64,000 nucleotides of DNA from NCBI RefSeq assembly GCF_965641715.1, contig NZ_OZ282453.1. One strand, given 5' to 3'. A program made the translations under genes and the position numbers. This stretch comes from Escherichia coli (GTDB lineage: Bacteria; Pseudomonadota; Gammaproteobacteria; Enterobacterales; Enterobacteriaceae). This document shows, one piece after another, positions 1 to 43,363 of the stretch. The first letter of the stretch is position 1; each line of letters begins with the position of its first letter. The notes under the pieces are model-generated. The model saw only the letters and a list, made by a program, of their open reading frames with translations, was not told where the DNA came from and ran no database searches.

Positions 1-396
1 ACGGAAAATTCCACTGTCAGTCCCTCCATTAGGCATGAACAATGAGTCTACGTTAAAACGTAACCTCAAATTAGTATGTGGATTTTGATATCACTTATGC
101 AAAAATTTCATTAATAATAGGGGACTGTAATTTCTCTATTATGGGAAAAATGAAGCAGACACAATGAGATTAATGACAAGCACAAAATTGCCCGATGCGC
201 TATGATTATCATGCCGACCAGAGAATCGCAATATATTGAATTTTCGCTATTTTTTAGGCGAGATAAGTTCCAGCATGCACAACCAGCGTTTGTCAAAAAT
301 CTGAGATACTGTCAGTCGCCTGGCCTCGGACCTTTCTGTTTTTGATACACTTATAGCCTTTGTCATACGAAAAATGTGCGAAATGGCGAAGGGTAA

Positions 397-1260
397 ATGG
401 AGAATGTTATGATCAGGCAGAAGATTTTGCAGCAACTCCTGGAGTGGATTGAGTGCAATCTCGAGCACCCTATCTCAATCGAAGATATCGCACAGAAATC
501 TGGCTACAGTAGACGCAATATCCAGCTCCTGTTCAGAAACTTCATGCATGTGCCGCTGGGAGAATACATTCGCAAACGAAGACTTTGCCGGGCAGCTATT
601 CTTGTCCGACTGACAGCGAAATCTATGCTTGATATTGCACTATCTTTGCATTTTGATTCACAGCAGTCATTCAGTCGTGAATTTAAAAAATTATTCGGAT
701 GCACTCCCCGAGAATACCGGCTCCGTGATTATTGGGATCTGGAAAATATCTTCCCTCCATTTTTAGCACGCCAACATCAAAAAACTGATTGCACATTAAT
801 CCATTTCCCAGAAACACGTATTTTTGGCAATGCATTTAAATATGATGTTGAAATATCGAATAAATCACCGGATGAAGAAGTTAAACTGCGACGTCATTAT
901 TTAGCCAGATATATGAAGAATTTTAAGACGGATATCTATTTCGTCTCAACGTTTAAACCATCAACAAAGTCGGTCGATTTACTCACAGTTGAAAGCTTTG
1001 CTGGTACGGTATGTGAACATGCTGACATGCCGAAAGAGTGGACAACGACCCGAGGACTTTATGCCTCTTTCCGTTATGAAGGAAACTGGAAACATTACTC
1101 TGACTGGGTGCGGAACATCTATCTAATAGAGTTGCCTGCAAGAGGGTTAGCCAGAGTGAACGGCAGCGATATTGAGCGCTTTTATTACAATGAAGATTTC
1201 GTAGAAAAGGATTGCAATGATGTTGTTTGCGAAATTTTTATCCCCGTTCGTCCTCTTTAG
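397..1260 (+). CDS. ykgA: AraC/XylS-family regulator, Rob-like (N-terminal HTH, C-terminal GyrI-like domain)
   Basis: 287-aa ORF; AraC-type double HTH in residues ~10-110 followed by a GyrI-like C-terminal region; position next to eaeH as I recall for K-12. Confidence 0.7.
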   Translation: MENVMIRQKILQQLLEWIECNLEHPISIEDIAQKSGYSRRNIQLLFRNFMHVPLGEYIRKRRLCRAAILVRLTAKSMLDIALSLHFDSQQSFSREFKKLFGCTPREYRLRDYWDLENIFPPFLARQHQKTDCTLIHFPETRIFGNAFKYDVEISNKSPDEEVKLRRHYLARYMKNFKTDIYFVSTFKPSTKSVDLLTVESFAGTVCEHADMPKEWTTTRGLYASFRYEGNWKHYSDWVRNIYLIELPARGLARVNGSDIERFYYNEDFVEKDCNDVVCEIFIPVRPL

Positions 1261-1287
1261 CCTGTAACTCCATCACATGAGATTTAC

Positions 1288-1323
1288 CCTACCCTGCCAC
1301 CGTCTAATCGGTAGCAGGGTAGG
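1288..1323. terminator. Hairpin between convergent ykgA and eaeH (10-bp stem cctaccctgc/gcagggtagg, 16-nt loop)
   Basis: Perfect inverted repeat read directly; sits between two convergent stop codons; no clear U-run. Confidence 0.35.
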
Positions 1324-1384
1324 TATTCAGTAAATAATGGCGCTGCGCATGTCAACGCCATTATTATTTATTACATCGTCGCTT

Positions 1385-4300
1385 TTATTTCTCCTCCGCG
1401 TCTTCAGTCTCTGCAGCAACGGCGTTAATTGTCACCTTCACAGGCGTCATTTCGTACCCGCCATACGTCAGTGCGTTGAATGTGAACGTATAGACACCTG
1501 GCTTGCTGGTACTAAATGTACGCGTGATTTTCCCACCTGAGAAATGGTCAGCCTTCGACGGCAGGAATTGATAATCCTTCTCCGTCACTCCTTCCGGAGC
1601 CTCAATGTCGACCCACATACTTCCTCCTACGGGATTGACTCCCGCCATCAGGGTAACCGTCATTGTTGCAGTAGTCTTCCCGTCCGCCACCAGAGAATCT
1701 ACACGTTCTGGAGATGCGGCGAGCACCGCGTTTTTATCATCCGCGACGAATTTAGATTCAGCAGTTTTCGTCGATACCTGACCGTTGGCCTGTTCCACTT
1801 TCGCCGTGAGTGTATATGTCGCTGCGATAGTGGTAGAGCCGGTGAAAACAGCCTGTCCTTGCTCATTAGTTTTCGCCGTCCCTTTAGGATCCAGAACTAA
1901 ATTTTCCGAGCTGGCAGTCAGCGTCACGTCGCTATCCTTCAACAGGTTGTTATTGGCATCAGTCACCGTAACTTTATACGTTTGTTTGGTTTTGCCATCC
2001 GCCACTGCACGGTTGCCAATCACCTCAATACTGGAGATGGTCGCCGTAGTCTTATCGGCCACAAACGTTACAGACTGCGCATTTGAAGGCTGGTCATTTC
2101 CTGCCGACGCCGTGATCTCATACGTTCCGGCAGTCACGGAGACCACTTTCAGTTCCGCTTTACCCTCCTTGTCGGCGTTCACCATGATATTACCGTCTGC
2201 AAGCGGTTTGACGCCCCGAGGCAGATTAAAGACGACCACAGCGCCAGGCAGAAGGTTGCCGTATTGATCCTTAACCGTTGCCGTCAGCGTAAAGGCATCA
2301 TTGTCGTTTGCCACTTTTGGCGTGCTGCCATCAACCTCCAGGGTCGCCTGACCGGTACTGAAATCCGCCTTGAATTTCACCGTAACCGTCTTCTGAGCAT
2401 TATTCACTGAGGCCGTGATGCTGTGTTCCCCGGCAACCGTTGACATAAGCTCAATGTCCACTTTCCCTGCCGCATTGGTTGTTACTGTATTCCCCGTCTT
2501 GCTGGTCACACCCTGCGGTAAAGTCAGCGTAACTTCTTGCCCCTGCAACGGGTTACCATAGCTGTCCACGACGGTCAGGGTTATCTGGTTAGCAGACTGT
2601 CCATTAGCCAGTTGGTTATTAACCTTCACTGTCATATCACGAATCTCAGCCTTAGATGCGTCACCTGCAACGTTCAGCACCAGTGGCTGAGCAACGGCAT
2701 TTTGGCCGTTCACTCGCGGCATCACAGACAACTGACCCGCGGCAGATCCCAGCGTTAAGGTCGACACGTAGACCCCATTACCTTTCTCTGTCCAGTTTCC
2801 TGCTGAAGGACGCTCACTCCCCGTGCTGGCGGCACCGCTAAACACTGGTGCATCTGGCTTCAGCCCGGTGACCGGGTTCCCGTACGCATCCTTCACGGTG
2901 AAGGTGAGTTCCGTCGTCGTTTTGACGGTCGGAGCCTTATTGTCCGCAACAAGCGTAGAGTTCGCTGATGACATCTCTCCGGCGATGACCGTCAACTGCG
3001 CGGCTTCGGTGGCTGCTGGCTGGCCGTTGAAGAGAGGCATGACGCGAAGCTCGCCCGTCTTTCCACCTGTAGTCAACGTAGCAACATAGGAACCGTTACC
3101 TTTTTCGGTCCAACTGGAAACGGTCGCCCCTTCAGAGGCGGTCCCCGTCAAACTTGCCGACAACGCAAGACCACTGATAGCGTTGCCATGCGCATCTTTC
3201 GCCACCAGCGTCACGGTTGTGCTTTCGCCGGCTTTTACGTGATCTTCTGCGACAGAGACTTTCGACTGGTTTGAAGATAACGCATCAGCCACCACGGTTA
3301 CTTTTGCCGCATTTGCTGCCGCATTCTGTCCATTTAGCTTCGGCATAACTTCTAATTCACCCGCCGTAGAGCCGAGAGTAATCTGCGCAGTCCACGTCCC
3401 ATCACCATTATTTGTCCAGCCCGATGCCGTAGAACCTTCAGCAGCGGCACCCGCTAATGACGGCGCTTCCGGCGTGAGGCTGGTCACAGGGTTGTCATAG
3501 GCATCTTTTACCGTCCAGATTGCCGTAACTGTACCCCCAACCACCGGTTTATCAGGATTCAGGGTGATGGACGAATGTGCTGCATCAAGCGGCCCGGCAA
3601 CAAACTTCAGCGTTTGTTGTAATGTGCCCAGCTGATACTGCTCGCTGAAAGCACGCACAACAACGTTTCCGGCACGGGTCGAAGAAACCGTGGCGCTGTA
3701 AACGCCTGGTTTTATTTCCGAAATGGCACCAACGGTTACACCATTAGTGTCTTGCGGAACAAATCGCAAGCGGCTGGCTTCTCCCGTCACCGGATTACCC
3801 TCGGAGTCCACCGCAGTCAACGTCAACGTATAGGCTTGCTGACCATCAGCAACCACGTCACCTGACGGCTCGTTAGCGCTCAGGGTGGAGTTTGCCACAT
3901 CCATCATCGTGGCCCGCAGTTCTGCAGTGACGGTTTTGCTCATGCCATCAACGCTAACAGTAATCGTTGCCTCACCTGACTGCGTTCCGGTAGTAAAGAC
4001 AGACTGATACACCCCTGCTTCAGTTTCGGTGAACTCACCCAGTGTTGGCTTTGCCTGTGATTTAGTGGCCTTCAGGGAACGAGTCACAATATTTCCAGCC
4101 GGTTTGAAAGTTAGTTCAGTCTTGATCTGATCTTTCATGCCCGTGACTGGCTGGCCCTCGGCGTCGCGCAGAGACAGCACCAGCGGTTTTTGCTCATTAC
4201 CGTTAGCAAGCATTTGAATACGGCTCTGACCGTCAAGCGTTAACGCCGTGCGATCGGCGCTCATACCTGCTCCGGTAATGACCACCTCTGTCTGCACGCG

Positions 4301-5635
4301 TTTTGAGGCATTGTCTTTGTTATCGTAGGCAACCGCAGAAATCGCATAATAATTGTCTTTGCCTGGACGATAAGCCGGGAGCGTTACTTGCCACTGACTA
4401 CCCTGACCGGTAATTTTGCCACCTTCAGCCAGTAATGACGGCGCTTCCCACTGCACATTTTTCAGTCCGTGAGTTGCTTTGCTGACCACAAGCCCCAGGG
4501 AAAGTGTCTGACCGCCCTTGCCTTCAATACGTTCAGGCAGAGCAATACGGATCACTTCAGATTTGCGGTACTCAAGAACGATGTTGTTATTACGCTCAAC
4601 CAGGTCATAGCGGCTGCCTGCCAGCATTCGACGCTCGCGAATGCTGTCTGTATCGAGTTGTTTCTCCAGAGGTTCGCCAATCCGATAATTAACTTCCAGG
4701 CCAAAGCGAGTGTCATTCTCACCACTCTTGCCCTGCTTATGCCCGGCACTCAGGGTCAGAAGAGGTACTGGCGTGTAATTCACTTCAGCGGTAATCGCAT
4801 GTGGATCTTTCTGGCGTTTATCTTTGCCAAACAGCCCGACTTCATCGCCATAATACTGCTCATACATCAGGCTTGCGCCAAGCTGCGGCCAGGCGGGTAA
4901 ATAGCCCTCAGCACGAATATCCCAGCCATTCGCCGGGCGTTCCTGATAATCCTCAACATCCGGCGATTTTTTCCAGCCAGAAGCCCGAATATAACCATTG
5001 GCGCTCAGTTTCAGATAATCGCGCCAGTATTCCGCACCAACACCAATGCGGGTATGACTACGGGATAAATCATGGTCGATAAAGGTGTTCACCCCCGCCA
5101 TCCAGTCATTTCCTGAAAAATGACGCCAGCCAAAACCAATATTTGACTGAGTACGATCGTCTGTACGATGTATTGCTCCCTGAGTGAACAACATATTTGT
5201 TGGCGTATCATAAATCGGATAAAGCATTTCCAGCGAAGAATCCTTCAGCGAGAAATCTTTATCGACATTCAGTTTGACGCGCGCAGTACCGTATTTCCCG
5301 AGCCACTCCTGTATTTCCTGGTTAGCTTTAGCGGTGGCCATTCCGGTAATAAAATTACGTGTCGCATCGCTATCTGGCTGACTGCTTAAAAATGTCCCGG
5401 CATTTGCGGCAAACGACGCGACATTTTTCTCCACGTTATTATCAGCAGTTACCGTAGTATTTCCCATGCTCAACCGTGGCTGAACAGCATGCTGCGCACG
5501 TGCCGCCATTACTGGGGTAAAAGTGACTGCGAGTGGAAAAAGAACCTGAACAGAGATATTTGCCCACGCCACGCAGCGGGCCAGAACTGAATAACGAAAT
5601 CGTGGTTGTTTATGACCTGTTTTATAACGTGACAT
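1385..5635 (-). CDS. eaeH: Intimin/invasin-family inverse-autotransporter adhesin with tandem Ig-like (Big) repeats, FdeC/EaeH-like
   Basis: 1416-aa ORF; N-terminal signal-like region and beta-barrel segment; more than 8 repeated xT(L/V)TxxDxxGNPVTG motifs and repeated GEL(E/R)VMPxxNGQ motifs. Confidence 0.8.
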   Translation of the reverse strand: MSRYKTGHKQPRFRYSVLARCVAWANISVQVLFPLAVTFTPVMAARAQHAVQPRLSMGNTTVTADNNVEKNVASFAANAGTFLSSQPDSDATRNFITGMATAKANQEIQEWLGKYGTARVKLNVDKDFSLKDSSLEMLYPIYDTPTNMLFTQGAIHRTDDRTQSNIGFGWRHFSGNDWMAGVNTFIDHDLSRSHTRIGVGAEYWRDYLKLSANGYIRASGWKKSPDVEDYQERPANGWDIRAEGYLPAWPQLGASLMYEQYYGDEVGLFGKDKRQKDPHAITAEVNYTPVPLLTLSAGHKQGKSGENDTRFGLEVNYRIGEPLEKQLDTDSIRERRMLAGSRYDLVERNNNIVLEYRKSEVIRIALPERIEGKGGQTLSLGLVVSKATHGLKNVQWEAPSLLAEGGKITGQGSQWQVTLPAYRPGKDNYYAISAVAYDNKDNASKRVQTEVVITGAGMSADRTALTLDGQSRIQMLANGNEQKPLVLSLRDAEGQPVTGMKDQIKTELTFKPAGNIVTRSLKATKSQAKPTLGEFTETEAGVYQSVFTTGTQSGEATITVSVDGMSKTVTAELRATMMDVANSTLSANEPSGDVVADGQQAYTLTLTAVDSEGNPVTGEASRLRFVPQDTNGVTVGAISEIKPGVYSATVSSTRAGNVVVRAFSEQYQLGTLQQTLKFVAGPLDAAHSSITLNPDKPVVGGTVTAIWTVKDAYDNPVTSLTPEAPSLAGAAAEGSTASGWTNNGDGTWTAQITLGSTAGELEVMPKLNGQNAAANAAKVTVVADALSSNQSKVSVAEDHVKAGESTTVTLVAKDAHGNAISGLALSASLTGTASEGATVSSWTEKGNGSYVATLTTGGKTGELRVMPLFNGQPAATEAAQLTVIAGEMSSANSTLVADNKAPTVKTTTELTFTVKDAYGNPVTGLKPDAPVFSGAASTGSERPSAGNWTEKGNGVYVSTLTLGSAAGQLSVMPRVNGQNAVAQPLVLNVAGDASKAEIRDMTVKVNNQLANGQSANQITLTVVDSYGNPLQGQEVTLTLPQGVTSKTGNTVTTNAAGKVDIELMSTVAGEHSITASVNNAQKTVTVKFKADFSTGQATLEVDGSTPKVANDNDAFTLTATVKDQYGNLLPGAVVVFNLPRGVKPLADGNIMVNADKEGKAELKVVSVTAGTYEITASAGNDQPSNAQSVTFVADKTTATISSIEVIGNRAVADGKTKQTYKVTVTDANNNLLKDSDVTLTASSENLVLDPKGTAKTNEQGQAVFTGSTTIAATYTLTAKVEQANGQVSTKTAESKFVADDKNAVLAASPERVDSLVADGKTTATMTVTLMAGVNPVGGSMWVDIEAPEGVTEKDYQFLPSKADHFSGGKITRTFSTSKPGVYTFTFNALTYGGYEMTPVKVTINAVAAETEDAEEK

Positions 5636-6185
5636 TGAGATAATTTCCTGATGAACGAATTAACGAACATAGGCAGACACAAATAATGGCGTCTGCTTGT
5701 CAGAAAAACCGGGGATTTCCCGATTTCCTTTTCCGCAGAAAAGGAAATACCTTTATGTAAGAAAGTGCACCGCCACCTAATATATCCAGTGTCTGTAGCC
5801 ACTCATCAGGTGGTTGGGCGCGGGATTATATTTTTATTTATGGGTGAAAATTTAGCTTTTTGTGCAAGTCATTAAATAGATACCTAAGTTATATTTTTTA
5901 CTCTGCGGACAGTGAATAATTCATTATTCAGAGTGAATAATAATGGCCTGCCTTTAATTAACAACTATTGGAAATACGTCGAAGTAGGTATATACGCCAG
6001 GATAAACCGATATATTTTTTATGGATATTCATTTTCCTTTATCGGACTGTAAATTGCGGGGATATCGAACTTGTACTACTCATCTCAACACTCAAACAGA
6101 TTTATGAATTTCGTTCATAACCCCTGACAAATCCTGCCGTCTAATCGAGCTCTTCTCTTTACGTTATGCTTCTCATGAACGATAA

Positions 6186-9052
<2,867 letters not shown>

Positions 9053-9192
9053 CTATTATTTTAGCCACATTATTAGTAACAATGATAATCTGGCTGTATC
9101 GAAAATAATTCTAAACTTTCAGGAGATTTATTATGAATAAACGTATCCTCACGATTGTGCCATTCTTCTTACCGATATTCTGACACATATCA

Positions 9193-10119
9193 TCAATTTT
9201 CGAGTTTTACTCTTTTCTCCACCATAAAATCAATAAAAGCACGAACTTTAGAGGGCATTCTCACCCGTGATGAAACATAAATATAAAATCCAGGAAATGA
9301 AACAGCCCAATCCTCAAGAATCGGCTGTAACTTGCCCGCATTGATATGTTCAGCGATTGCAAAATCCAGATGTTGAATGATACCCGTTCCATTCAGCGCC
9401 ATTCGTATCATGCTTTCGTCATCATTAGAAATATACTTACCTGAAACCTCTATTTCGAACTCTTCATTACCCCCCACAACATTAGAAAACTCCCATGCAG
9501 AGAGTGCACCGCTACTTTTATGCCGCAACCGAAGGCAATTATGGTTACTCAGTTCCTGAGGCGTTTCAGGAATACCGTGTTCTTTTAAATAATCTGGCGA
9601 TGCCACAGTAACCAGTTTAATAAGCGGAGAAACAGGAACGGCAGTCATATGCTCATCCAGTCCTTGCTCAAGACGTATGCCCACATCACAGCCGTCCGCA
9701 ATAATGTTAGATAAACCGTCATCCATAATGAGTTCTATCTTTGTTTTGGGGTAACGAGTAAGAAACTCGCCAATATGAGGCTCAACAAGCATCCGTGCTG
9801 CAACACGGGAGGAATTTATTCTCAACAGGCCTGTAGGTTCAAGTTGGGTATCACCAACATCTTTCAAAGCATCATCAATTTGCCCCAAAGCCGACACCAG
9901 CACTTCATACAGACGCTGTCCTTCCTCAGTAAGCGACATATTGCGGGTCGTACGGTATATCAGCTTGGTGTTAAGACGTTCCTCAAGAGATTTTAAATTC
10001 TGGGACAATGCGGCCCGCGTAATACCCATTTCAGAAGCGGCTCTGGAAAAACTGCCGGCACGAACAATCAGCGCAAACCAGGCAAGAGAAGGCAAAATTG
10101 AAGGCTCTATTTTCATCAT
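9193..10119 (-). CDS. LysR-family transcriptional regulator
   Basis: HTH FSRAASEMGITRAALSQNLK; divergent from the hydrolase gene at 10276; start chosen at internal Met. Confidence 0.75.
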   Translation of the reverse strand: MMKIEPSILPSLAWFALIVRAGSFSRAASEMGITRAALSQNLKSLEERLNTKLIYRTTRNMSLTEEGQRLYEVLVSALGQIDDALKDVGDTQLEPTGLLRINSSRVAARMLVEPHIGEFLTRYPKTKIELIMDDGLSNIIADGCDVGIRLEQGLDEHMTAVPVSPLIKLVTVASPDYLKEHGIPETPQELSNHNCLRLRHKSSGALSAWEFSNVVGGNEEFEIEVSGKYISNDDESMIRMALNGTGIIQHLDFAIAEHINAGKLQPILEDWAVSFPGFYIYVSSRVRMPSKVRAFIDFMVEKRVKLEN

Positions 10120-10275
10120 TGTAAACCTTAACTTAACACTGTGATAGATATTAGACCATTGATGATAACCAATACAAGTCATACTATTACGCCGTTCTCG
10201 ATATGAACACGAATGCCAGTTGCGGATAATAGAAATGATATTTAAATCTGTTTAGGCAAATCCCCGGAGCTTGAA

Positions 10276-11196
10276 ATGAAAACTGTTTCGATAAAACACA
10301 CTTACTGGGATATAGCTGCTGATATCTATTTCCCTGACGATTTTAATAGTGAAAAAAAGTATCCTGCCATTATCAGCGCCCATCCAATTGGAAGCTGCAA
10401 AGAACAGACATCGGGTAGTGTGTATGGTGCCGCCCTGGCAAAAGCTGGCTTTATCGTCATTGCTTTTGATGCCAGTTTTCAGGGTAGCAGCGGTGGGGAA
10501 CCGCGTTATCAGGAAGATCCAACAATGCGAGTAAAAGACTTCAGCATTGTCGTTGATTACCTTACCAGCTTACCTTACGTTGATGCCGGGCGTATTGGTG
10601 TACTGGGTATTTGTGGTGGAGGTGGATATGCCATTAATGCCGCAATGACAGAACGTCGAATTAAAGCTATTGGTACTGTCACGGGTGCAAACTACGGGCG
10701 TCTTATGCGTGAGGGATTTACAGCGTTTAATCCTATCGGAGCACTCGAAGCAATAGCGCAACAAAGAACAGACGAAGCTAACGGCGCAAAACTTCGCGTA
10801 GATGATTTACTCCCCTCTTCTCCGGATGCAGCTCTTGAAGCGGGATTAACAGAAATAGACCTTTTTGAAGCCACAGAATATTATCGTTCGCCACGAGGCT
10901 GTGCACCTAATGGGGTAAATCGTTCGCTATTCTCACATCAGACTGTTGCCGTGGGTTGGGATGCATTTCATCTTGCAGAAGTGCTGTTAACTCAACCAAT
11001 AATGGTTGTGGTGGGCGATAGAGTGGGCGCATTTGGTGCCTACCGTGACGGCTGCGAAATTATTGGCCGCGCTGCTTCAAAACATAAAGAGCTGGTCGTG
11101 GTTGAAGGTTATTCACATTACGACCTGTATGATAAGCCAGAACCTGTGAAACAGGCACTCGATAAATTAATTCCTTTTTATAAAACACATTTGTAA
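10276..11196 (+). CDS. Alpha/beta-fold hydrolase (dienelactone-hydrolase-like), cytoplasmic paralog
   Basis: 306 aa; nucleophile-elbow-like GICGGGG; C-terminal HYDLYD; paralog of the ORF at 29996-31132. Confidence 0.6.
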   Translation: MKTVSIKHTYWDIAADIYFPDDFNSEKKYPAIISAHPIGSCKEQTSGSVYGAALAKAGFIVIAFDASFQGSSGGEPRYQEDPTMRVKDFSIVVDYLTSLPYVDAGRIGVLGICGGGGYAINAAMTERRIKAIGTVTGANYGRLMREGFTAFNPIGALEAIAQQRTDEANGAKLRVDDLLPSSPDAALEAGLTEIDLFEATEYYRSPRGCAPNGVNRSLFSHQTVAVGWDAFHLAEVLLTQPIMVVVGDRVGAFGAYRDGCEIIGRAASKHKELVVVEGYSHYDLYDKPEPVKQALDKLIPFYKTHL

Positions 11197-11440
11197 TAAT
11201 TTTACAGGGAGATTTCTTATCTCCCTTATATTTATCCTTTACTGACTACACAACAATAATAAAATTACTCAAAAAGAAATTTCATTAAAGAAACAAAAAA
11301 GCAGCAACTCAATTATTAAGATTATTAGAAACCCTTTGAAGGGATTATAAATAAAGCCAGAAATCTTGGTTCCAAAGCTGGCAACAACTAACCAGTTAAA
11401 ACATACGCATCAAAATCAGATAAACATTTGAGGTATTGTT

Positions 11441-12583
11441 ATGACAAATAAACACCCATCATTGTTTTCTCCTTTTATGCTGACAGAAAAAATAAAGCTA
11501 CGTAATCGTATCGTTATGGCTCCTATGACGACCTGGTCAGCGAATCCTGATGGAACCATCTCTGAGCAAGAACTCGAATTTTATAAACGCCGCTCACAAA
11601 ATGTTGGTTTAGTAATAACAGGATGTACCTATGTCACGCCAAGCGGCATTGGGTTTACTCATGAATTTGCCGCGTATGACGACCGTTTCATTAACAGCCT
11701 TGAAAAGTTAGCAGCGGCAGCCAAAAGTGGGGGTGCTCCGGCTATTTTGCAGATTTTCCACGCCGGTAATAAAGCCATCCCGGAGCTTGTACCAAATAAC
11801 GATGTTATTAGTGCCAGCGCATCAAGCGTAAAATCTGGTGACTTTATGAAGAGAGTGGTACAAAGCAGGGAAATGACTGAAAACGAAATTCAGGAAACCA
11901 TTAGAGCATTCGGAGATGTCACAAAAAGGGCGATTAAAGCAGGTTTTGATGGCATTGAACTTCATGGTGCGCACGGATTCCTTCTACAGAATTTCTTCTC
12001 CCCTCTATTTAACCAGCGTAATGACCGATGGGGAGGAGATCTCGAAGGACGTATGCGCTTCCCGCTGGCCGTATTACAGGAAGTAAAAAATGTAGTCTAT
12101 GAATATGCGACAAAGCCCTTTGCCATCGGTTACAGAATATCTCCTGAAGAATCTGCAACAGGGGGGCTGCGGATAGAGGATACTTATAAACTCCTTGATC
12201 GGCTCATTTCATCCGGTATTTCGTATATACATACCTCGCTGGTCAGTATTAACGAAAGCTACCCTGTTGAGTCGCCAAATGGCCCCCGAACTATTGAATT
12301 GATTTTAAATCATATTGCAGGCAGAGTGCCGGTAATCGCTGCAGGTAAAATACGCACACCGTCTCAGGCTCAAGAAGCAATTTCCACTGGCCTGCCACTT
12401 GTTGCGATCGGTAAAGGGCTGGTGATAAATCCAGAATGGGTGACTTTAGCTGAATCAGGTAGAGGCCATGAAATTCAAACAACCCTTAATCCACAACTTG
12501 TTCCTGAATTAACCATTCCGGATAAACTATGGGATCAAATTCAGGCATCGAAAGGAACTGGCTGGTTTCCGTTAATGGATTAA
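11441..12583 (+). CDS. NADH:flavin oxidoreductase, Old Yellow Enzyme family
   Basis: 380 aa; OYE-like motifs (HGAHGFLLQNFFSP, TIM-barrel pattern). Confidence 0.75.
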   Translation: MTNKHPSLFSPFMLTEKIKLRNRIVMAPMTTWSANPDGTISEQELEFYKRRSQNVGLVITGCTYVTPSGIGFTHEFAAYDDRFINSLEKLAAAAKSGGAPAILQIFHAGNKAIPELVPNNDVISASASSVKSGDFMKRVVQSREMTENEIQETIRAFGDVTKRAIKAGFDGIELHGAHGFLLQNFFSPLFNQRNDRWGGDLEGRMRFPLAVLQEVKNVVYEYATKPFAIGYRISPEESATGGLRIEDTYKLLDRLISSGISYIHTSLVSINESYPVESPNGPRTIELILNHIAGRVPVIAAGKIRTPSQAQEAISTGLPLVAIGKGLVINPEWVTLAESGRGHEIQTTLNPQLVPELTIPDKLWDQIQASKGTGWFPLMD

Positions 12584-22445: not shown

Positions 22446-22646
22446 ACATAAATTAATTGCACTGCCCCGCCAGCGATAATAGCGGGGCTTCGTTTTTCAG
22501 GGGTAACAAAACCCGAAACTTCTTCTATTTGCCAGCAACAATGCCTCTCTTCTGTAGCGTTCTTCGGATCTACATCATCCTAAAGTAGCGCGATATACTC
22601 ACTGACTATCTGAATCAGAATATAAAAAGCAATGTTTTTAACCTAT

Positions 22647-22675
22647 AAAAATGGCGCTGTATTTGCGCCATTTTT
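22647..22675. terminator. Bidirectional intrinsic terminator hairpin (aaaaatggcgc / gcgccattttt)
   Basis: Perfect inverted repeat flanked by an A-run and a T-run, between convergent ykgJ and yagU. Confidence 0.45.
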
Positions 22676-22688
22676 ATCATTCAATGCA

Positions 22689-35193: not shown

Positions 35194-35211
35194 ATGGTGC
35201 CGATAATAGGA
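35194..35211. repeat. attL: 18-bp direct repeat (atggtgccgataatagga) identical to the thrW 3' end at 46821-46838
   Basis: Exact match read directly; marks the island boundary distal to the integrase. Confidence 0.7.
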
Positions 35212-35391
35212 ATAAAATAAAACAATAACATACTGAAAAATATACAAAAAAGAAACACACCGTTAAGTAATGCCCCCGAAAATGCCCCCATAATAGATGC
35301 CGCAGTAAGTCGACTTGTCCCAAGGACTGGTAAGTAATGTCAATAGCGGGAACAAAGAGACATTACTTACCGAGAATGGAATCCATTTAGG

Positions 35392-36621
35392 TTATGCTGG
35401 CCAATCCCACTGCTGATAGGCAGAGAATAGGCGCGTGAGCTCAGCAGGCGCAAGAATATCAACAATATTAGCTCTGTAGCTATGCGATTTACCTAATGGA
35501 ACATTTTCGAAATGATTAGCTTGATAAGGATTAAAATCGTGAAGCTCACCTAATGTTGAGATATCGGTATTAATAGTTTTAAGCCAAGAAACAAGAATTA
35601 CTTTTGCCCCTGTTCTCTGTATGTAAGCTCTTGCCGATTCAAAACTATAGCCTCGAGTTGTTATATCATCTATAAGAAGTACTGTTTTACCAGGGCCTAA
35701 AGGTGGTTTTTTATAGGTAGTTCTAGGATTTCTGTGTGGCTGAGAATTAAGACAAATTGTATTAAGTTGATTGCAATGGTCAATTGCAACTCCCTCATTT
35801 CTTGCTTTTTGAGATTTTTTGGAAGTCGTATGCCTTAAAATAAGATCTGGGATATACGTCTTGCGAAAACATTTTCCAAATATTGAAATCGCTTCATCCA
35901 TGATATTATTCCCATATCCTTGCTTATGCCCTGGATAAACACTAACATAATTAATCATCTTATGAATGCCACTAAAATAGAGACTGGATATTAAGGCACT
36001 CGTCCAAAATTCAGGATGGCCTAATCCATGTTTAGCAGCAGCACGAGCATCTTCAGAGTAAAGAGTATACTCTTCCTTCATGGTGCTGAAAGGAGCAAGT
36101 GCATAGAAATTAAAATCACCATCGTGAATTTCATGACACCAAAGATGCTCTCTTAAACAGAAGGTATCTATAAATCTAGCAATATCTTTAGGGGTTGAAA
36201 ACTCGAAACCATAATCTGTTTTGTCTGCCCACCATGTAGCTCTTAAAAAGAGCAACTCACCATTAACTGCTGTTTGCATGTCGTTTATCGAAGCACCAAT
36301 GTACAAAGTTTCTGTACTTTCCCAACCCATCAAATCAAGGACATATTTTGTAGCATCCGCAGTTGGCTTCCCTGGAATGCTCTTATCTTTCGCTCGACAA
36401 AGATATTTAAATTCTCCCCAATGCTTTTGTAACACATCCTCTAAAGGGGTTCTTTCATCTCCGACAACCCAACCCCTGTTAGTGAATACAACAAACTCGA
36501 TCTTTTTAGTTCTGAAATATCTAATTAATTTATCTACCTCTGCAAAGATTTCGCTATCGATCTTTCCCTTAGGCACAAGAATATCTTCAACACTAAGAAT
36601 CACACCCTTAATTTTGCTCAT
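35392..36621 (-). CDS. Protein with C-terminal phosphoribosyltransferase (PRTase) domain; ShosT-like candidate effector
   Basis: 409 aa; PRPP-binding motif VLLIDDITTRGYSF near the C-terminus; N-terminal ~250 aa unassigned; AT-rich; 11 bp downstream of the DprA-like gene. Confidence 0.65.
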   Translation of the reverse strand: MSKIKGVILSVEDILVPKGKIDSEIFAEVDKLIRYFRTKKIEFVVFTNRGWVVGDERTPLEDVLQKHWGEFKYLCRAKDKSIPGKPTADATKYVLDLMGWESTETLYIGASINDMQTAVNGELLFLRATWWADKTDYGFEFSTPKDIARFIDTFCLREHLWCHEIHDGDFNFYALAPFSTMKEEYTLYSEDARAAAKHGLGHPEFWTSALISSLYFSGIHKMINYVSVYPGHKQGYGNNIMDEAISIFGKCFRKTYIPDLILRHTTSKKSQKARNEGVAIDHCNQLNTICLNSQPHRNPRTTYKKPPLGPGKTVLLIDDITTRGYSFESARAYIQRTGAKVILVSWLKTINTDISTLGELHDFNPYQANHFENVPLGKSHSYRANIVDILAPAELTRLFSAYQQWDWPA

Positions 36622-36631
36622 TTCATCTTCC

Positions 36632-37612
36632 TTAGAGATCTAAGCTCTGCTGTATCGGCTGTGCTTTTAAATCATGATTATTATTCAAAATATAATTACT
36701 CATCTCATTCAATTCAAAAGGCATTAAAAAAGATAAAGAATTTCTATTTTCTTCAGCAAACTTCAATTCTGGTCTACTTTCATACGTAGTAGGAAGATAT
36801 GGACTCGCTATCTTTTTTGCATACTTAAAAGCATAATCAACAGTATGTGATGTTCCACTTTTAATATTCCATTCGACTGGTATTAGTGAATCACATAAAG
36901 CAGCCTGGATTCTGTTACGCCTTACAAAATTTTCTGCGCTATATGTTTGTTCAGGTAGATACTCGGTAACGATAGCCCCACCATTAGAAACTATTGCTCG
37001 ATATAACTCTTTAGAACCTTTCGGATACTCGACAAAAATCCCATTACCCAATACCGCAATAGTTGGAATGCCATATCTCAGCGATTCATAATGACAACAT
37101 TGATCTATTCCTGTCGCCAAACCACTGACTGTTGAAACATCTTTAGAATATAGAGAAGAAACAATCAGTTTTACTAGAAAAATACCATCATCCGTTGGCT
37201 TTCGTGTCCCCACAATTGCAACAGATTTCTTATTAAGAAGTTCATAATTACCATGAACAAAAATCCAAAATGGCGGATCGCTTATGTTCTTTAATGATTG
37301 AGGAAATGTAGCCTGATCATAAAAGGTGAGCACAATACCATTTTTATTGAGTTCACGAGCTCTCTCCAGTCCCTTAGACCAAAGGTCTTGTTGAAATGTT
37401 TCCCAAGATATATTTTTAGGCAAGGAAACTCTTAGATATCCTGCCAAGGCATCAGCTGTATTATCTTTTAATATATTCTTAAATCCAATTTTGGATTGAT
37501 AGATTTTGCGAAGCGTCCAGTAACCAACCCCCTTTAGACAAGTTAAGGCAAGAAACGCAATAATTTCATTTTTCCAAAACTCTCTAACTTCAGTGTAATC
37601 TTTATATTCCAT
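36632..37612 (-). CDS. DprA/Smf-like (SLOG-superfamily Rossmann) protein; ShosA-like candidate
   Basis: DprA signature region (VAIVGTRKPT ... SGLATGIDQCCH ... TIAVLGNGIFVEYP ... FVRRNRIQAAL); start set at the internal Met MEYKDY. Confidence 0.65.
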   Translation of the reverse strand: MEYKDYTEVREFWKNEIIAFLALTCLKGVGYWTLRKIYQSKIGFKNILKDNTADALAGYLRVSLPKNISWETFQQDLWSKGLERARELNKNGIVLTFYDQATFPQSLKNISDPPFWIFVHGNYELLNKKSVAIVGTRKPTDDGIFLVKLIVSSLYSKDVSTVSGLATGIDQCCHYESLRYGIPTIAVLGNGIFVEYPKGSKELYRAIVSNGGAIVTEYLPEQTYSAENFVRRNRIQAALCDSLIPVEWNIKSGTSHTVDYAFKYAKKIASPYLPTTYESRPELKFAEENRNSLSFLMPFELNEMSNYILNNNHDLKAQPIQQSLDL

Positions 37613-38027
37613 TTTACGTTTGCCTTTTAGATTACAACCCGTACTCAACACAAAAAATTTAGAAAATTGTTGCCAAAAGCATATTATAAATAGCATCTTA
37701 CCGCAGATTTGTGAAGCAACAACATCCCTAGGAGAAACCTTAACCTAGCGGGACAACTTACTGACCAATCCTCAGCTAGCTCATTGAATTGCCCCCATAT
37801 CGCACAGCCCCGCACGCCTGCCCGCTTCGCTTAACAGACTGGTTTTCATGCACCTCATAAATCGTCTCAGAAGCCACCAAACAAGGGCTTTCTCGTCAAA
37901 AATGGTGCATAAGACTCATGCGTTTTCATGCGCCATAGACATGCACTCATGCGCTCTCAGGCCAGCCAGGGAAAAGGTGTTAAAAATCCCGGTACTCGAC
38001 CGGGATTACGTAGGCGTTTTTTTCTAA

Positions 38028-38300
38028 TCAGACAGGAATCTGCTGACGGCTTGACAGTTTTGACGCGGAGCCATAGCGATTGAGCGTTTGCTGTTGTTTT
38101 ACCGGGGTTTGTGATTTGTCTGGTTCCTGTTCATTGCGCCGGGGTTTCATGATTATCTTATCCACACTCTCCAGTGCCGTAAATGTGCAGGAACATTCCA
38201 GATTCTGGCACTGATACCACGAGCGTTTAACTGACGGAGCTTCATAGGCTGCTGTTCTGGCGTGTGCAACTGTACCGCATTCCGGACATTTAAGTGCCAT
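38028..38300 (-). CDS. Ogr/Delta-family zinc-finger late-gene activator
   Basis: CPECG...(H)...YQCQNLECSCTF zinc-finger spacing as in P2 Ogr / P4 Delta. Confidence 0.75.
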   Translation of the reverse strand: MALKCPECGTVAHARTAAYEAPSVKRSWYQCQNLECSCTFTALESVDKIIMKPRRNEQEPDKSQTPVKQQQTLNRYGSASKLSSRQQIPV

Positions 38301-38305
38301 TAATA

Positions 38306-38857
38306 TCACTCCTGTATATCGTTAATGTCATTCAGGCGTTGCTGAAAACGCAGATGTTGTGCCGGGGTGTAAGAGCCCTGGCAATCACGAATCATACTGG
38401 GGTCAGGCATCAAACCGGATTCATCCAGGATCTCACGATAATCCCCGGCAATTTCAGGCGGTGTTATTGCCAGCTGGCGAACCAGAGCACTGCGTAATAT
38501 ACGGGACGCAACGTCAACCCCTCCGCGCCCCTTCAGGAACGGAGCCAGTGCAGATGTCAGGGCTGCCCCATTCGCCTGCATAAAATTGCTGAGAGCGGCT
38601 TCTGTGCAGGCCTCCATCAGTAAATGCTGCGAGTAAATGCATTCGCGCGCAGCACAGTTAATTTGCCATTTCAGCACATCCAGACGTTCCCGCAGGAATT
38701 CGAGCTGTCGGGCATAATCTGCTGGTTTTTCTGTGGCAGCGAGGAGAGATGTTATCTGTTGTTCAACGGCTTTTCGGCTCTCACTATGTCTGGCCCACAG
38801 AATACGGGCATTCCGAAAACTGGTAAGTACCTGGTCAGGTGTGCCTCGGGCCGTCAT
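38306..38857 (-). CDS. Psu-like (polarity suppression / capsid decoration) protein
   Basis: 183 aa; resembles my recollection of P4 Psu (LKWQINCAAR ... FMQANGAALTSALAPFL); overlaps neighbours by 4 bp. Confidence 0.55.
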   Translation of the reverse strand: MTARGTPDQVLTSFRNARILWARHSESRKAVEQQITSLLAATEKPADYARQLEFLRERLDVLKWQINCAARECIYSQHLLMEACTEAALSNFMQANGAALTSALAPFLKGRGGVDVASRILRSALVRQLAITPPEIAGDYREILDESGLMPDPSMIRDCQGSYTPAQHLRFQQRLNDINDIQE

Positions 38858-39597
38858 ACTGCTTTCTCCTTCTCAGCAAGTTCCTGACGAACCTTTATTT
38901 TATGCATAGCTGCTGGAGAGAGTTGATTACTGAAATCCAGACGCGCCGCATAATCCGGGGCAACTCCCGCCAGTTTAAACACCGGGTCCTGTTCAGGCAT
39001 CGCATCGTTAGCCAGAGCCGGTCTGGTGATATGTTTATGAATAAAGTCTTTCAGCACTGTGTCCGGGTCATTAACTGAATTCACCACACCCACAACGGCA
39101 CTGGCTTCCCGGCCCATTGTGGATTTAAGCAGGCTCAGCGTCTGAATAAGCGCTTTTCCATGCGACTGCATAAAATCCTCCCAGATTTGTTTTGCGCGAA
39201 TATCCACAAGAATGTTATGCGCGTGGATATACTTTCCGGCTAATTCCGCAGCTTTCTGCGGCAAAAGTGCATTTTCGCTTTCCTGAGCCGCCAGCAGCTC
39301 ATCAAAATCCTCAAGCGTTTCTCGTCCCAGCGCAATTTCCGTGCGCAGTTTTTTCATTTCCTTTGAGACCACGCCCTGACTTTCACGAAACAGCGTGCGC
39401 CACTCCTCATTCAGTGTATTCGTCGTGGATTCCATTTCAGCGCGACGCTGGCGGATTGTCGCAATATTATCCGCTGCCGCTTTCTGCTGACGACGTGCTT
39501 CAAGCCATGCGTTTCTGGCTGTGTTCATGGTTTCCAGTGCCCGCTGCGTTACAGCCGGAAAAGTGGAAAGGTTGTTATTCACTGCGGTGTTGTTCAT
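38854..39597 (-). CDS. Sid-like (capsid size determination) protein candidate
   Basis: 247 aa; Psu/Sid-fold-like segment; position upstream of psu-like. Confidence 0.45.
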   Translation of the reverse strand: MNNTAVNNNLSTFPAVTQRALETMNTARNAWLEARRQQKAAADNIATIRQRRAEMESTTNTLNEEWRTLFRESQGVVSKEMKKLRTEIALGRETLEDFDELLAAQESENALLPQKAAELAGKYIHAHNILVDIRAKQIWEDFMQSHGKALIQTLSLLKSTMGREASAVVGVVNSVNDPDTVLKDFIHKHITRPALANDAMPEQDPVFKLAGVAPDYAARLDFSNQLSPAAMHKIKVRQELAEKEKAV

Positions 39598-39776
39598 GAC
39601 TTCTCCTGTCGGGTTGGTTCGTTACGTCAATTGTGTCGTGGCTGACACAAGCACACTATCGGTGCTCAGTGTGTGGTGGCTGGCACAACGGGCGCTTGCG
39701 GTTATTCAGACGTGGCTATGAAAGCCAGCCAGATAAAAATGCCCACTGTTTCAGTCTGCTTTATGTCCCTGATGCG

Positions 39777-39964
39777 GTGGAACAGGTGAAACATGTGTTA
39801 CAGCTTTGTTTTATAAATCATTTATATACACTGCACCGGTGGAACATCGCGGGTAACAAGGTGGAACAGCGGATTGGCTGGCGTTACATCTGTTCCACCT
39901 CACTATTTCAGAAGGTGGAACAGGTTCAGCCCCTGTAAAATACGGTTGTTCCACCTGTTTCACC
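39777..39964. repeat. Iteron cluster: at least 8 copies of GGTGGAACA / TGTTCCACC (and GGTGAAACA variants) in both orientations; candidate replication region
   Basis: Copies at 39777, 39785, 39838, 39860, 39891, 39914, 39947, 39956; similar to the P4 type-I iteron TGTTCACC; immediately 3' of the alpha gene. Confidence 0.55.
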
Positions 39965-39998
39965 TGTTACCCTTAATAAATAAGACTCACGCAAAGCC

Positions 39999-42671
39999 TT
40001 AACCCGGCACCTCGCTGTTGAAGACATAGAGCCTGCGGGGATTCATCTCTGGCGGGCGAATGGTTGTCTGGAGTTTGCCATCAGTGGAGGGCAGCAGGTA
40101 TCCACGATCTGCGCACAGACGCGCCACCTTGCGCGGGTCAAATCCCCTGCAGATTTCTTTCCAGCCGGACGGCATGACATAAAACGTAGTGACAGCTTCC
40201 GTGCCCTGCGCGGTACTGCCTTTCTCCACCCTGCGCCAGCCCACCATATTGGCGGGGCGGTTGCGCTCGTCATACCAGTCTGCAAAGCGGCTGTACTGAT
40301 TCGCGGTAAAGAAACTGCGAACCTGCTCCAGTGCGGCGATATCTTCCTGATTGGCGGTGTGCCCGCGCTCTTTCAGCCATGCGTTCAGGCAGACGCGGGT
40401 TGCCCGCAATGCTTCACCCTCAGGCCAGCCGGTGATACCCTGACGGGTTGCCAGTTCACCTGCCATCGCCACCAGTGCAAAGCGGTTCACAGCCCGGCCC
40501 ACCTGATTGCCTGCATCTTTCGGAGTCAGGGCGGCAGCATATTCCTTCATCAGCGATTTTGCCTGTGCCGTTAGTCCGTTAAGATCAGCGGTCAGTGCTT
40601 TCAGCCACTCCCGGAACGGCGAACCGTAGTAGCAGGACGTGGCCCATTCAAGATGCTCTGCCAGAGCCTTGCCGCTGTCGAAGCCGTGCAGCTCCTCAAA
40701 AACGCCAAACTTCCCGGAATCGCTGGGGATCTGGATCATCCTGACTTCCATCCCGGCAAAAGTACGCTCACCGGCCTTTGCCGCATGTTCGGTCAGAGAT
40801 AACTCGCCAGTTGAAAAGAACAACAGGCGCCACTGCTTACGGGTACGCAGTTCACCGTCCGTACCGGCACGACCCTTGCCCTGACCGTTTGCCAGCATGT
40901 AGGCGATATTGCCTGCCTCGCGTCCGTCAACTTCCCGGATCTCATCAAGCATCATGGCGGCATCGTTGCGGCGGCTGGCACATCCCTCCAGCGCGTTGCC
41001 GGTGGCCCGCCATGTCTGCCAGTAGTCAGGCCCGCCGCAGACGGAGGTTGCCGCTTTCATGGTGGTGGTCTTACCGTCTGTCGATTCCCCTTTGAGGTGG
41101 TAGCCGCCGCCGTCCATACCAACCAGCCGTAACAGTGGTGCAGCAAAGGCCAGGCTGACAGCAAATGCCACGCGGGAGTTGCCGGTACAGTAGCGGGATA
41201 CGTTCTCCCGCCATTCCTCTGTTGTGCCCGACACGCGGAAATCACGCCCCTGCACGGAAGTGGTCTGGAGAATGACACCCTCTGCACCTTCACCGCTGAC
41301 CTCATCCTGCAGGACGTAAACCTGACCATGCCAGCCAGTACGGCTGACGCAGGTCACGCGACGTTCCGGTTTACACAGTGAGATATATTCCATCAGGCGT
41401 GCGCGTGCCTCACCGGTGGTGCTGATATAAGACAGCCCGTTAACAAGCAGTACCCGGCGCAGTTCCTCACCACTGCCGCTCAGCATTTCCATCGGCATCG
41501 CCCAGCGGCGACGCTCACCCCACGTATCTTCCCATTCCAGCAGTCGTCCGAAGTTACCGCCATCGGCATCGCAGGTGATTGCCGTCACGCGCAGCGGGCT
41601 GCATATTTTGACGTTCTGGATCTCCGTCTCACCGTTGCGCTGTACCTGCTTTTCATACCAGAGATATTCCTGGGTAAGACGGAACCCGTGCGGCAGTTGC
41701 GTGCGGCCTTCCCCGCACAGTACCAGACCGTTGCGAAAGGCTTCACGGGCACGGGTAATACCGTGCTCCCGATGAAAGTCATTCCAGTCAGCCTTAATCT
41801 CTCCTGGTGGCAGCGTCATCCAGCCGCCAACAGCTTTTGCCGCCCGTTCAGCAAAGGCTCTGCCGGGATTCTCCCCCCCGTCCTGAAAATCGTTATCACC
41901 GGCGATGATAATTTTTACCTCAGGCCAGCGTGCCCGCAGCGACTGCGCCACATTGGGCAGGTTGCCCGCAGATATGGCAGCCACTACGCATCCGGCAGTG
42001 AGCTGGCTTACCGTCAGCGCCGTAGCGTAACCTTCGGTAATCACCACCTGTACCGGTGGTTCAGACGGTAACGGGCTGAGCGACACAAACGCGCCTTTCA
42101 TCGTGCTGCCGGGCAGTATGCTTTTTTCACCCGTCGGGGCGATAAGCTGTGCACCGGTCACGGCTCCGGTGTTGGTCGTGAGTGGTAACAGCAGGGAACC
42201 AGCAGGAAAATCCTTACCGCTGATATGCTGCACGCTTCCGGTCAGAGAGGCCGGGTATCCGGCGAACCCTTTTCCTGCCAGATAGGCACTTTCTCCCGTG
42301 TGGCTCTCTTTCATCAGCGTCGCCACGGTAAGGCTCATGTCGCGTTTAGGGGCTTTTTGTCTGGCAGGCTTAACAGGCAGTTCCTGCACATCCGGCACAT
42401 TAAGCACCTGCGCCACCTGCTGCGCAGCCTTTCTGACGTTGTAGCCGGTTACGAGCTTAACCAGATCCAGACCGTCACCATTGCCACACTGGCTGCAGAT
42501 CCACGTCCCGCGCCCGTCAAGGTCATCGAGGCGAAAACGATCCTTGCCCCCACATTTCGGGCAGGGACCGTGCCTGCCGTTTTCAGGTACATCAATACGC
42601 AGCATATGCAGAATAACGGGCCATTTCCCCCGCGCGGCGGCTGAAATCTGCGTAACCGTCTGTATTGTCAT
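39999..42671 (-). CDS. P4 alpha-like primase/helicase
   Basis: 890 aa; N-terminal zinc-binding CPKCGG...CSQCG; Walker A GESTDGKTT. Confidence 0.8.
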   Translation of the reverse strand: MTIQTVTQISAAARGKWPVILHMLRIDVPENGRHGPCPKCGGKDRFRLDDLDGRGTWICSQCGNGDGLDLVKLVTGYNVRKAAQQVAQVLNVPDVQELPVKPARQKAPKRDMSLTVATLMKESHTGESAYLAGKGFAGYPASLTGSVQHISGKDFPAGSLLLPLTTNTGAVTGAQLIAPTGEKSILPGSTMKGAFVSLSPLPSEPPVQVVITEGYATALTVSQLTAGCVVAAISAGNLPNVAQSLRARWPEVKIIIAGDNDFQDGGENPGRAFAERAAKAVGGWMTLPPGEIKADWNDFHREHGITRAREAFRNGLVLCGEGRTQLPHGFRLTQEYLWYEKQVQRNGETEIQNVKICSPLRVTAITCDADGGNFGRLLEWEDTWGERRRWAMPMEMLSGSGEELRRVLLVNGLSYISTTGEARARLMEYISLCKPERRVTCVSRTGWHGQVYVLQDEVSGEGAEGVILQTTSVQGRDFRVSGTTEEWRENVSRYCTGNSRVAFAVSLAFAAPLLRLVGMDGGGYHLKGESTDGKTTTMKAATSVCGGPDYWQTWRATGNALEGCASRRNDAAMMLDEIREVDGREAGNIAYMLANGQGKGRAGTDGELRTRKQWRLLFFSTGELSLTEHAAKAGERTFAGMEVRMIQIPSDSGKFGVFEELHGFDSGKALAEHLEWATSCYYGSPFREWLKALTADLNGLTAQAKSLMKEYAAALTPKDAGNQVGRAVNRFALVAMAGELATRQGITGWPEGEALRATRVCLNAWLKERGHTANQEDIAALEQVRSFFTANQYSRFADWYDERNRPANMVGWRRVEKGSTAQGTEAVTTFYVMPSGWKEICRGFDPRKVARLCADRGYLLPSTDGKLQTTIRPPEMNPRRLYVFNSEVPG

Positions 42672-43051
42672 ACTTCCCCCTGATACAACGTCACACCAGT
42701 ACTGCAGAAGTCATCAAAGGTCGCCGGAAGCGTGCGGTACATCTCCGCCATTACTTCACAGCCGCGCGCGGTCAGTACCGGCGGCGCGGTCAGCAGTGAC
42801 GGCTCCAGCATGTCAGTCAGCAGTGCCAGCGCGGCAGCGGCGCCCTGTGCTTCGCCGTACTCGTTAATCAGTGCGCACTCGATATGCAGCGCAATGGCCA
42901 TTTCAATACGCTCCACCGTCAGGCTGTGCGGACCATACTGATCACTGCCAGTTTCGTTCAGCATTTTCTGCCGCCATGCTGAAGCAATAGCCCGCCGGTA
43001 AAGCGCGGTTGTCATTTCTGCCGGGAAAATGGAAACCTGCGGCTGGTTCAT
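42668..43051 (-). CDS. Hypothetical protein, satellite left operon
   Basis: 127-aa ORF; 4-bp overlap with the alpha start and the upstream ORF. Confidence 0.4.
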   Translation of the reverse strand: MNQPQVSIFPAEMTTALYRRAIASAWRQKMLNETGSDQYGPHSLTVERIEMAIALHIECALINEYGEAQGAAAALALLTDMLEPSLLTAPPVLTARGCEVMAEMYRTLPATFDDFCSTGVTLYQGEV

Positions 43052-43332: not shown

Positions 43333-43363
43333 CGTGGATTACTCCGTTTTCAGCGGTATTTTG

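Follow-up and report, generated by a model that had tools for sequence, protein, structure and literature searches.

An intact chromosomal copy of fdeC (eaeH) in Escherichia coli, encoding an inverse-autotransporter adhesin with a diverged Ig-like repeat array

The 64,000-nucleotide stretch of Escherichia coli DNA analysed here (the window) almost certainly carries an intact chromosomal fdeC (eaeH) gene, encoding a type Ve (inverse autotransporter) adhesin. The reading frame is whole, the domain layout is that of FdeC, and the gene is conserved and stands at its orthologous locus. Variation in fdeC takes the form of substitutions and mosaic alleles, concentrated in the distal domains R6-R9, together with occasional inactivation by insertion sequences (IS) or deletion. 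As FdeC has been published both as an adhesin and as a vaccine antigen, finding it whole adds a routine item to the list of virulence and colonisation genes of this strain. The copy is ordinary, belonging to a well-studied surface adhesin gene present in most E. coli strains, and it matters little beyond annotation.

Gene identity

The ORF listing of the window contains a single open reading frame lying exactly at 1385..5635, with an ATG start and 1416 codons followed by a TAA stop. Its translation holds that one terminal stop, confirming the uninterrupted 1416-aa frame described in an earlier note on this DNA. The strand, absent from that note, is minus.

The gene is annotated as fdeC in matching complete E. 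coli genomes, at 92-98.8% DNA identity, and a protein of identical sequence is already on record as E. coli FdeC (EFO3605806.1 and others), in a cluster that groups 17,949 members at 90% identity. A predicted mass of 149.8 kDa, computed from the window protein, agrees with the roughly 150 kDa reported for FdeC (PMC4943183) and was counted towards the identity. Because NCBIfam yielded no FdeC-specific model among its matches, all of which fell under cutoff, membership is drawn from orthology, PDB matches and Pfam. These lines, with the deposited exact protein, bear out the EaeH/FdeC-type assignment made from the sequence earlier, and no evidence was found against it.

Domain architecture

All coordinates in this section lie on the minus strand. 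The protein begins with an extended signal region (aa 1-47; 5495..5635), in which a basic n-region with six K/R residues in aa 1-20 precedes a hydrophobic core at about aa 21-44 and then AARA/Q. By a heuristic check of hydropathy and residue count, this has the makings of an N-terminal Sec signal peptide with a presumed cleavage site. A short segment (aa 48-75; 5411..5494), in which Pfam lists no LysM, leads from the signal region to the barrel and is presumably periplasmic, given inverse-autotransporter topology. The beta-barrel and its linker follow (aa 76-357; 4565..5410): PF11924 (IAT_beta) scores 368.9 bits over aa 76-350, where the cutoff is 22.3 (E 2.4e-110), and the solved barrels of invasin (PDB 4E1T) and intimin (PDB 4E1S) match aa 113-357 (E 9.4e-84) and aa 115-357 (E 4.5e-72), respectively. 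A profile search had been put forward as a check on the earlier assignment, and Pfam returned both the inverse-autotransporter barrel and Big_1 matches.

The passenger comprises ten Ig-like domains, namely a D00-like domain and nine repeats of about 100 aa, in keeping with the 10 Big domains described for FdeC (PMC4943183). The D00-like domain (aa 358-475; 4211..4564) was recognised only through intimin PDB 6TQD (aa 358-474, E 1.2e-10) and had no match when scanned alone with Pfam. Self-BLASTP of the protein, run where a self dot-plot had been suggested, gave no off-diagonal matches because the repeats are too diverged; an iterated self-profile was used instead. This delineated nine repeats of about 100-105 aa each, from aa ~476 to 1408. 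The previous estimate of at least eight repeats in the C-terminal two thirds was therefore accurate, aa 476-1416 making up 66% of the protein.

On the full protein, Pfam places Invasin_D3 in nine stretches and Big_1 in four, and when the repeats are scanned singly, R1-R8 (eight repeats) pass a Pfam gathering score. R1-R5 (aa 476-1008; 2612..4210) are of Invasin_D3 type, scoring 42-50 bits each against a cutoff of 33, with boundaries approximate to ~15 aa (R1 3854-4210, R2 3542-3853, R3 3239-3541, R4 2936-3238, R5 2612-2935); the solved FdeC fragment PDB 4E9L matches aa 595-1008 (E 4e-248). R6-R8 (aa 1009-1315; 1691..2611) are of Big_1 type, each scoring 54-74 bits where the cutoff is 34.9 (R6 2315-2611, R7 2006-2314, R8 1691-2005). 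The terminal repeat R9 (aa 1316-1416; 1388..1690) is Ig-like but divergent, and carries both an insertion and an acidic tail; the self-profile recovers it at E 9e-23, whereas its Invasin_D3 score, a weak 21.9 bits, stays under the Pfam cutoff.

The barrel and Ig-like domains are common to intimin and invasin, and NCBIfam intimin_all matches aa 58-481 (E 6e-115), which could suggest a true intimin or invasin with Tir or integrin as its ligand. That match, however, reaches 385 bits, far under the cutoff of 1400. At E<=0.01 Pfam lists neither LysM nor a C-type lectin tip, an absence expected of FdeC, and it gave no Intimin_C or other lectin-like C-terminal domain either. PDB invasin 1CWV aligns only at Ig-like chain residues 20-151 (query aa 1008-1140), and so does not supply the C-terminal integrin-binding D4-D5 superdomain of Yersinia invasin. 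An intimin or invasin identity thus has practically no probability and is refuted, the domains that define those proteins being absent.

Repeat number and sequence divergence

The repeat array had been proposed as a likely site of repeat-number variation, which would make fdeC a contingency locus gaining and losing tandem Ig-like units from strain to strain. At the protein level the array does hold nine to ten tandem repeats, and the number of Big domains differs among proteins of the wider inverse-autotransporter family (PMC4943183). At the DNA level, however, Tandem Repeats Finder reports no tandem repeat in the gene even at a score threshold of 30, and the longest direct repeat is 33 nt at 73% identity. 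Compared pairwise, the repeats share 20-51% protein and 28-51% nucleotide identity, with a longest exact common word of 16 nt.

Allele lengths argue in the same direction. About 75 full-length alleles, sampled from 5,087 matching records, depart from the query's span by no more than 6 nt, and only 12 extra match places occur among the 5,087 records, suggesting that duplications are rare or absent. The cluster members listed are 1416-1418 aa long, and five alleles that were translated measure 1415-1418 aa. Rare deletions in fdeC are out-of-register pseudogenes: the one mapped, in CFSAN061761, is frameshifted, does not align to repeat units and is annotated as a pseudogene. Near-identical tandem DNA repeats are thus lacking in the gene, as are differences of whole units among the sampled alleles. 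The repeats are too diverged for fdeC to be a repeat-number-variable locus, and the contingency-locus reading, which we rejected on this divergence and on sampled lengths no more than 6 nt apart, is extremely improbable. Given no DNA-level repetition and a constant domain count in the sampled alleles, the earlier proposal is not supported; a useful correction is to keep any variable-number label off the array.

Allelic variation and mosaicism

The domain layout of the window allele is the same as in the alleles of UTI89, EDL933 and ST131, to which it is 94.8%, 93.4% and 92.8% identical in protein sequence. The most allele-variable part of the gene is R6-R9, at 73-89% identity to the characterised alleles. 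From the pattern of identities, the window allele appears to be a mosaic, its proximal part of EDL933 type and its distal R6-R9 of D7/PS10-3 type. With R6-R9 so divergent from characterised alleles, ligand specificity could differ. A further suggestion is that the allele is a recombinant mosaic, and that distal modules exchanged among lineages, and not changes in repeat number, could diversify FdeC binding or allow immune escape. This would hold only if ligand specificity, or the main antigenic surface, resides in R6-R9, and we regard it as rather unlikely; if true, it would matter for FdeC-based vaccine design.

Locus and distribution

Of 5,426 complete E. coli genomes, 5,082 contain similar DNA, and in 4,585 of them coverage reaches at least 80%. 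The locus is syntenic and in the orthologous position: fdeC is convergent with a ykgA-like gene (397-1260, plus strand), encoding an AraC/GyrI-like regulator by its domains, and adjoins a reductase/LysR cluster, with the ecp operon nearby. The convergent spacer between fdeC and the ykgA-like gene (1261..1384) holds two inverted repeats, at ~1333-1365 and 1289-1322, which were seen by eye and were not reported by a terminator scan. An origin by horizontal transfer was considered and rejected, as the GC content of fdeC (52.2%) is close to that of the window (49.6%).

The K-12 copy of fdeC is known to be a pseudogene (PMC3324786), and the earlier statement that it is disrupted by an IS element was correct. 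In MG1655, eaeH (b0297, 314357-315244) is a stub of about 876 nt abutting IS3A (315229-316483). Only query nt 1-876 match K-12-type genomes; these first 876 nt are 96.9% identical between MG1655 and the window gene, and beyond the junction with IS3A, MG1655 lacks the rest of eaeH as well as the 3' end of ykgA.

Upstream region and expression

Upstream of fdeC, an AT-rich divergent intergenic region (5636..6200) extends to an aldo/keto reductase gene. Its GC content is 37.5%, against 49.6% for the window, and it presumably serves as the fdeC promoter and regulatory region. A scan of 5636..6200 identified no promoter above chance level: the single promoter-like site (minus strand, 5964-5937) is no more than chance expects. 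An AGGAA motif lies 9 nt upstream of the fdeC ATG.

Published FdeC expression is conditional, occurring on host-cell contact (PMC3324786) or at 39 C and above (PMC11143625), and the protein was not detected under routine culture (PMC3324786, PMC11143625). Control of fdeC by H-NS and temperature is attributed to Easton 2014 in passages of PMC11143625 and PMC4943183. The gene might accordingly be intact yet effectively cryptic in this strain, silenced by nucleoid proteins through the AT-rich upstream region and contributing little as an adhesin. The base composition, the want of a promoter-like site beyond chance and the restriction of FdeC to host contact or high temperature would all fit such silencing. 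Conditional expression nevertheless differs from loss of function, and the ORF is kept intact in ~85% of complete genomes, which argues for purifying selection and hence for use under some condition. We therefore hold crypticity to be possible though doubtful.

Proposed mechanism and function

Going by the family and by near-identical alleles, the long N-terminal signal peptide would direct the protein through Sec, and the barrel (aa ~76-357) would be put into the outer membrane with the help of BAM and TAM, the latter reported to enhance FdeC assembly (PMC4943183). The C-terminal passenger would then thread out through the barrel and fold into a surface-projecting rod of ten Ig-like domains. 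In characterised alleles, to which the window protein is 93-95% identical, the passenger binds collagens I, III, V and VI as well as epithelial cells, and it promotes aggregation and biofilm; fdeC would normally be silent, and be switched on by host-cell contact, alkaline pH or heat (at least 39 C). Cell and collagen binding with induction on host contact (PMC3324786) and temperature-dependent expression (PMC11143625) come from other alleles; export, binding and regulation in this strain would probably follow them. A functional adhesin here is plausible rather than firm, because published expression is conditional.

'Adhesin' may not be the whole story, since deletion of fdeC in APEC raised adhesion instead of lowering it (PMC11143625). 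In that study adhesion and motility both rose at 42 C on deletion, transporter abundance was altered, and constitutive FdeC expression causes aggregation (PMC3324786), as would be expected if FdeC were mainly a modulator of aggregation, biofilm and motility. Against this, recombinant passenger showed a Kd of ~1e-8 M in binding to epithelial cells and collagens, and FdeC expression in K-12 W3110 leads to more adherence (both PMC3324786); the sequence itself holds nothing to tell the two roles apart. A mainly modulatory FdeC seems fairly improbable to us.

Comparison with known relatives

The nearest characterised counterpart is FdeC of the ExPEC strains IHE3034, UTI89 and CFT073 (ECOK1_0290; Nesta et al. 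2012, PMC3324786), which shares the gene, the locus and the ten-domain layout, the UTI89 protein also being 1416 aa long. Relative to UTI89 FdeC, substitutions are concentrated in D0, R3, R6, R8 and R9 (85-93% identity there), and the architecture is unchanged. FdeC of EHEC O157:H7 EDL933 (Easton et al. 2014) is an orthologue as well: R1 and R3-R5 are 100% identical to the window allele, whereas R6-R9 are only 73-87% identical. EaeH of ETEC H10407 is likewise an orthologue, these domain figures being those for EDL933. FdeC resembles intimin (EaeA) and Yersinia invasin in its type Ve topology, its Big-type domains and a barrel homologous to theirs. Unlike them, FdeC is without LysM and a C-terminal lectin-like receptor-binding domain, and it carries ten Ig-like domains against the four to five of intimin and invasin.

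Identity of the fdeC gene and its product

The gene at 1385..5635 on the minus strand is an intact, wholly ordinary and already known fdeC (eaeH), whose reading frame, domain order, orthology and conservation are directly observed. The ORF listing of the window gives one long frame there, opening with ATG, encoding 1416 aa and carrying only its terminal stop, in agreement with the coordinates and length in an earlier note, which had omitted the strand. In Pfam, the inverse-autotransporter beta-domain (PF11924) occupies aa 76-350 (368.9 bits vs a cutoff of 22.3), followed C-terminally by Invasin_D3 in nine stretches and Big_1 in four; neither LysM nor Intimin_C is among the matches to this protein. 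Its NCBIfam matches are all partial and under their cutoffs, and the intimin model was set aside at 385 bits against a cutoff of 1400. Searching solved structures related aa 595-1008 to the FdeC fragment 4E9L (E 4e-248), the barrel to invasin 4E1T and intimin 4E1S, and aa 358-474 to intimin entry 6TQD. In aa 1-47, a basic n-region leads into a hydrophobic core, with an AARA/Q motif after it. The computed mass of 149.8 kDa agrees with the published ~150 kDa (PMC4943183), supporting the identification as FdeC. E. coli FdeC entries with the identical sequence already exist (EFO3605806.1 and others; 30 contigs), and their 90%-identity cluster holds 17,949 members with listed lengths of 1416-1418 aa.

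Distribution and genomic setting

Among complete E. coli genomes, 5,082 of 5,426 contain matches to fdeC DNA at 92-98.8% identity, annotated 'fdeC: inverse autotransporter adhesin FdeC', and in 4,585 a single place spans at least 80% of the query. The gene sits in its usual surroundings, which fit the locus description in PMC3324786: a ykgA-like AraC/GyrI-like regulator gene (397-1260) is convergent with fdeC, and upstream lie two aldo/keto reductases, two LysR regulators, an alpha/beta hydrolase and an NADH flavin oxidoreductase (6201-12583), then the ecp and pao operons.

The K-12 allele, described earlier as IS-disrupted, is indeed so: MG1655 eaeH (b0297, 314357-315244) is a pseudogene abutting IS3A (315229-316483), with a truncated ykgA next. 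In K-12-type genomes the match is confined to query nt 1-876; rather than a simple insertion, the K-12 allele is an IS3-associated truncation lacking ~3.4 kb of its 3' end, as PMC3324786 likewise states. Upstream of eaeH, K-12 keeps only a ykgP fragment where the window has the reductase/LysR cluster (6201-12583), so K-12 lost DNA on both sides of the eaeH stub; strain HS-02 has the same upstream arrangement.

Several further observations concern the genome search and the window at large. Eleven fdeC-matching places in the E. coli genome search are plasmid-borne, not chromosomal. By eye, the 124-nt spacer between fdeC and the ykgA-like gene contains two inverted repeats (1289-1365; AATAATGGCG...CGCCATTATT and CTACCCTGCTACC...GGTGGCAGGGTAG), neither of which was called by a terminator scan. 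For positions 1-12000, the best full-length match among complete RefSeq E. coli genomes is at most ~97.6%, and the exact FdeC protein is known from draft assemblies; the complete-genome set thus seems to lack the source lineage. In a neighbourhood comparison, similarity with other E. coli ended near 35.2 kb, and an island at 35200-46900 adjoins the tRNA-Thr(CGU) gene thrW (46822-46897, minus strand). This island looks like a P4-type satellite, judging by its integrase (45467-46726), Zn-ribbon/Toprim/DUF927 primase (39999-42671), Psu (38306-38857) and Psu-related protein (38854-39597), and it also carries the Shosta defence pair ShosA (36632-37696; PADLOC E 3.3e-90) and ShosT (35392-36621; E 3.1e-94). 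Two Rfam matches exceed their gathering scores, both on the minus strand: IS009 at 22484-22683, beside a yagU-like ORF (189.8 bits), and naRNA4 at 63479-63556 (74.1 bits).

Repeat architecture and repeat number

A self-profile, built from a single repeat and run iteratively on the FdeC protein, recovered nine repeats with a period of ~100-105 aa: R1 (~aa 476-570), R2 (~595-670), R3 (~699-775), R4 (~800-877), R5 (~901-983), R6 (~1009-1085), R7 (~1108-1185), R8 (~1211-1288) and R9 (~1316-1408), boundaries that are approximate and lie ~12-15 residues off the Pfam domain starts. Scanned singly against Pfam, R1-R5 pass the Invasin_D3 cutoff and R6-R8 that of Big_1, R9 is weak (21.9 bits) and the preceding D00-like domain (aa 358-475) has no match. 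The nine repeats and D00 make ten Ig-like domains, the count given for FdeC in a passage of PMC4943183 citing Nesta 2012.

The array had been thought a likely site of repeat-number variation, an expectation contradicted by both the sequence and a population sample. Tandem Repeats Finder reported zero tandem repeats in fdeC, even when the score threshold was 30, and direct repeats are short (the longest 33 nt, at 73% identity), a size at which, by the tool's own warning, matches often arise by chance. Pairwise, the repeats share 20-51% protein and 28-51% nucleotide identity, and the longest exact word common to any two is 16 nt, usually 10 nt or less, so that slippage or homologous recombination has nothing to act on. 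Among ~75 distinct full-length records, drawn as two evenly spaced samples of ranked matches, spans differ from that of the query by no more than 6 nt. Match places exceed records by only 12, so fdeC duplications are rare or absent. Five translated alleles measure 1415-1418 aa, with only single-residue indels at one internal column and the extreme C-terminus.

Exceptions to this uniform length are inactivated copies: an IS66-family insertion in the RM9387 chromosome (match H22 of the genome search), a degraded copy in HS-02, and a ~665-nt deletion in CFSAN061761. In the last, an imperfect 17-nt microhomology marks the junction of codons ~1011 and ~1232; this deletion does not keep to the repeat register, and its frameshift leads to a stop at codon 1013. 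Published FdeC 'variants' are sequence variants, differing at variable sites (PMC11143625).

Predicted export, binding and expression

From type Ve secretion and near-identical alleles, we infer the steps of export, binding and regulation. FdeC would be exported by Sec and its barrel inserted with the assistance of BAM/TAM (PMC4943183), after which the passenger would pass through the barrel to form a rod of ten Ig-like domains. The adhesin may then bind epithelial cells and collagens I, III, V and VI, and promote aggregation (PMC3324786). Expression is probably conditional, triggered by host contact or by temperatures from 39 C up (PMC3324786; PMC11143625), and may be under H-NS control, as a passage of PMC11143625 citing Easton 2014 indicates. 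The intergenic region upstream of fdeC is AT-rich (37.5% GC), which is compatible with H-NS silencing; a promoter scan of this region found no site above chance level.

Allelic variation and mosaicism

Set against the alleles of UTI89, EDL933 and ST131, the window allele shows 97.5-100% identity in the barrel and in R1, R2, R4 and R5; the D00-like domain (D0) and R3 drop to 87-93% vs UTI89 and ST131, and R6-R9 to 73-89%. R1 and R3-R5 of the window allele (within 2612-5635) are 100% identical to EDL933, and R6-R9 (within 1385-2611) are 73-87% identical to EDL933 vs 97-100% to strains D7 and PS10-3; the window allele is thus a mosaic, which suggests a putative recombination breakpoint within the gene, near where R5 meets R6. 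This pattern of divergence fits the published conservation gradient among FdeC subtypes, which runs from proximal to distal (PMC4943183).
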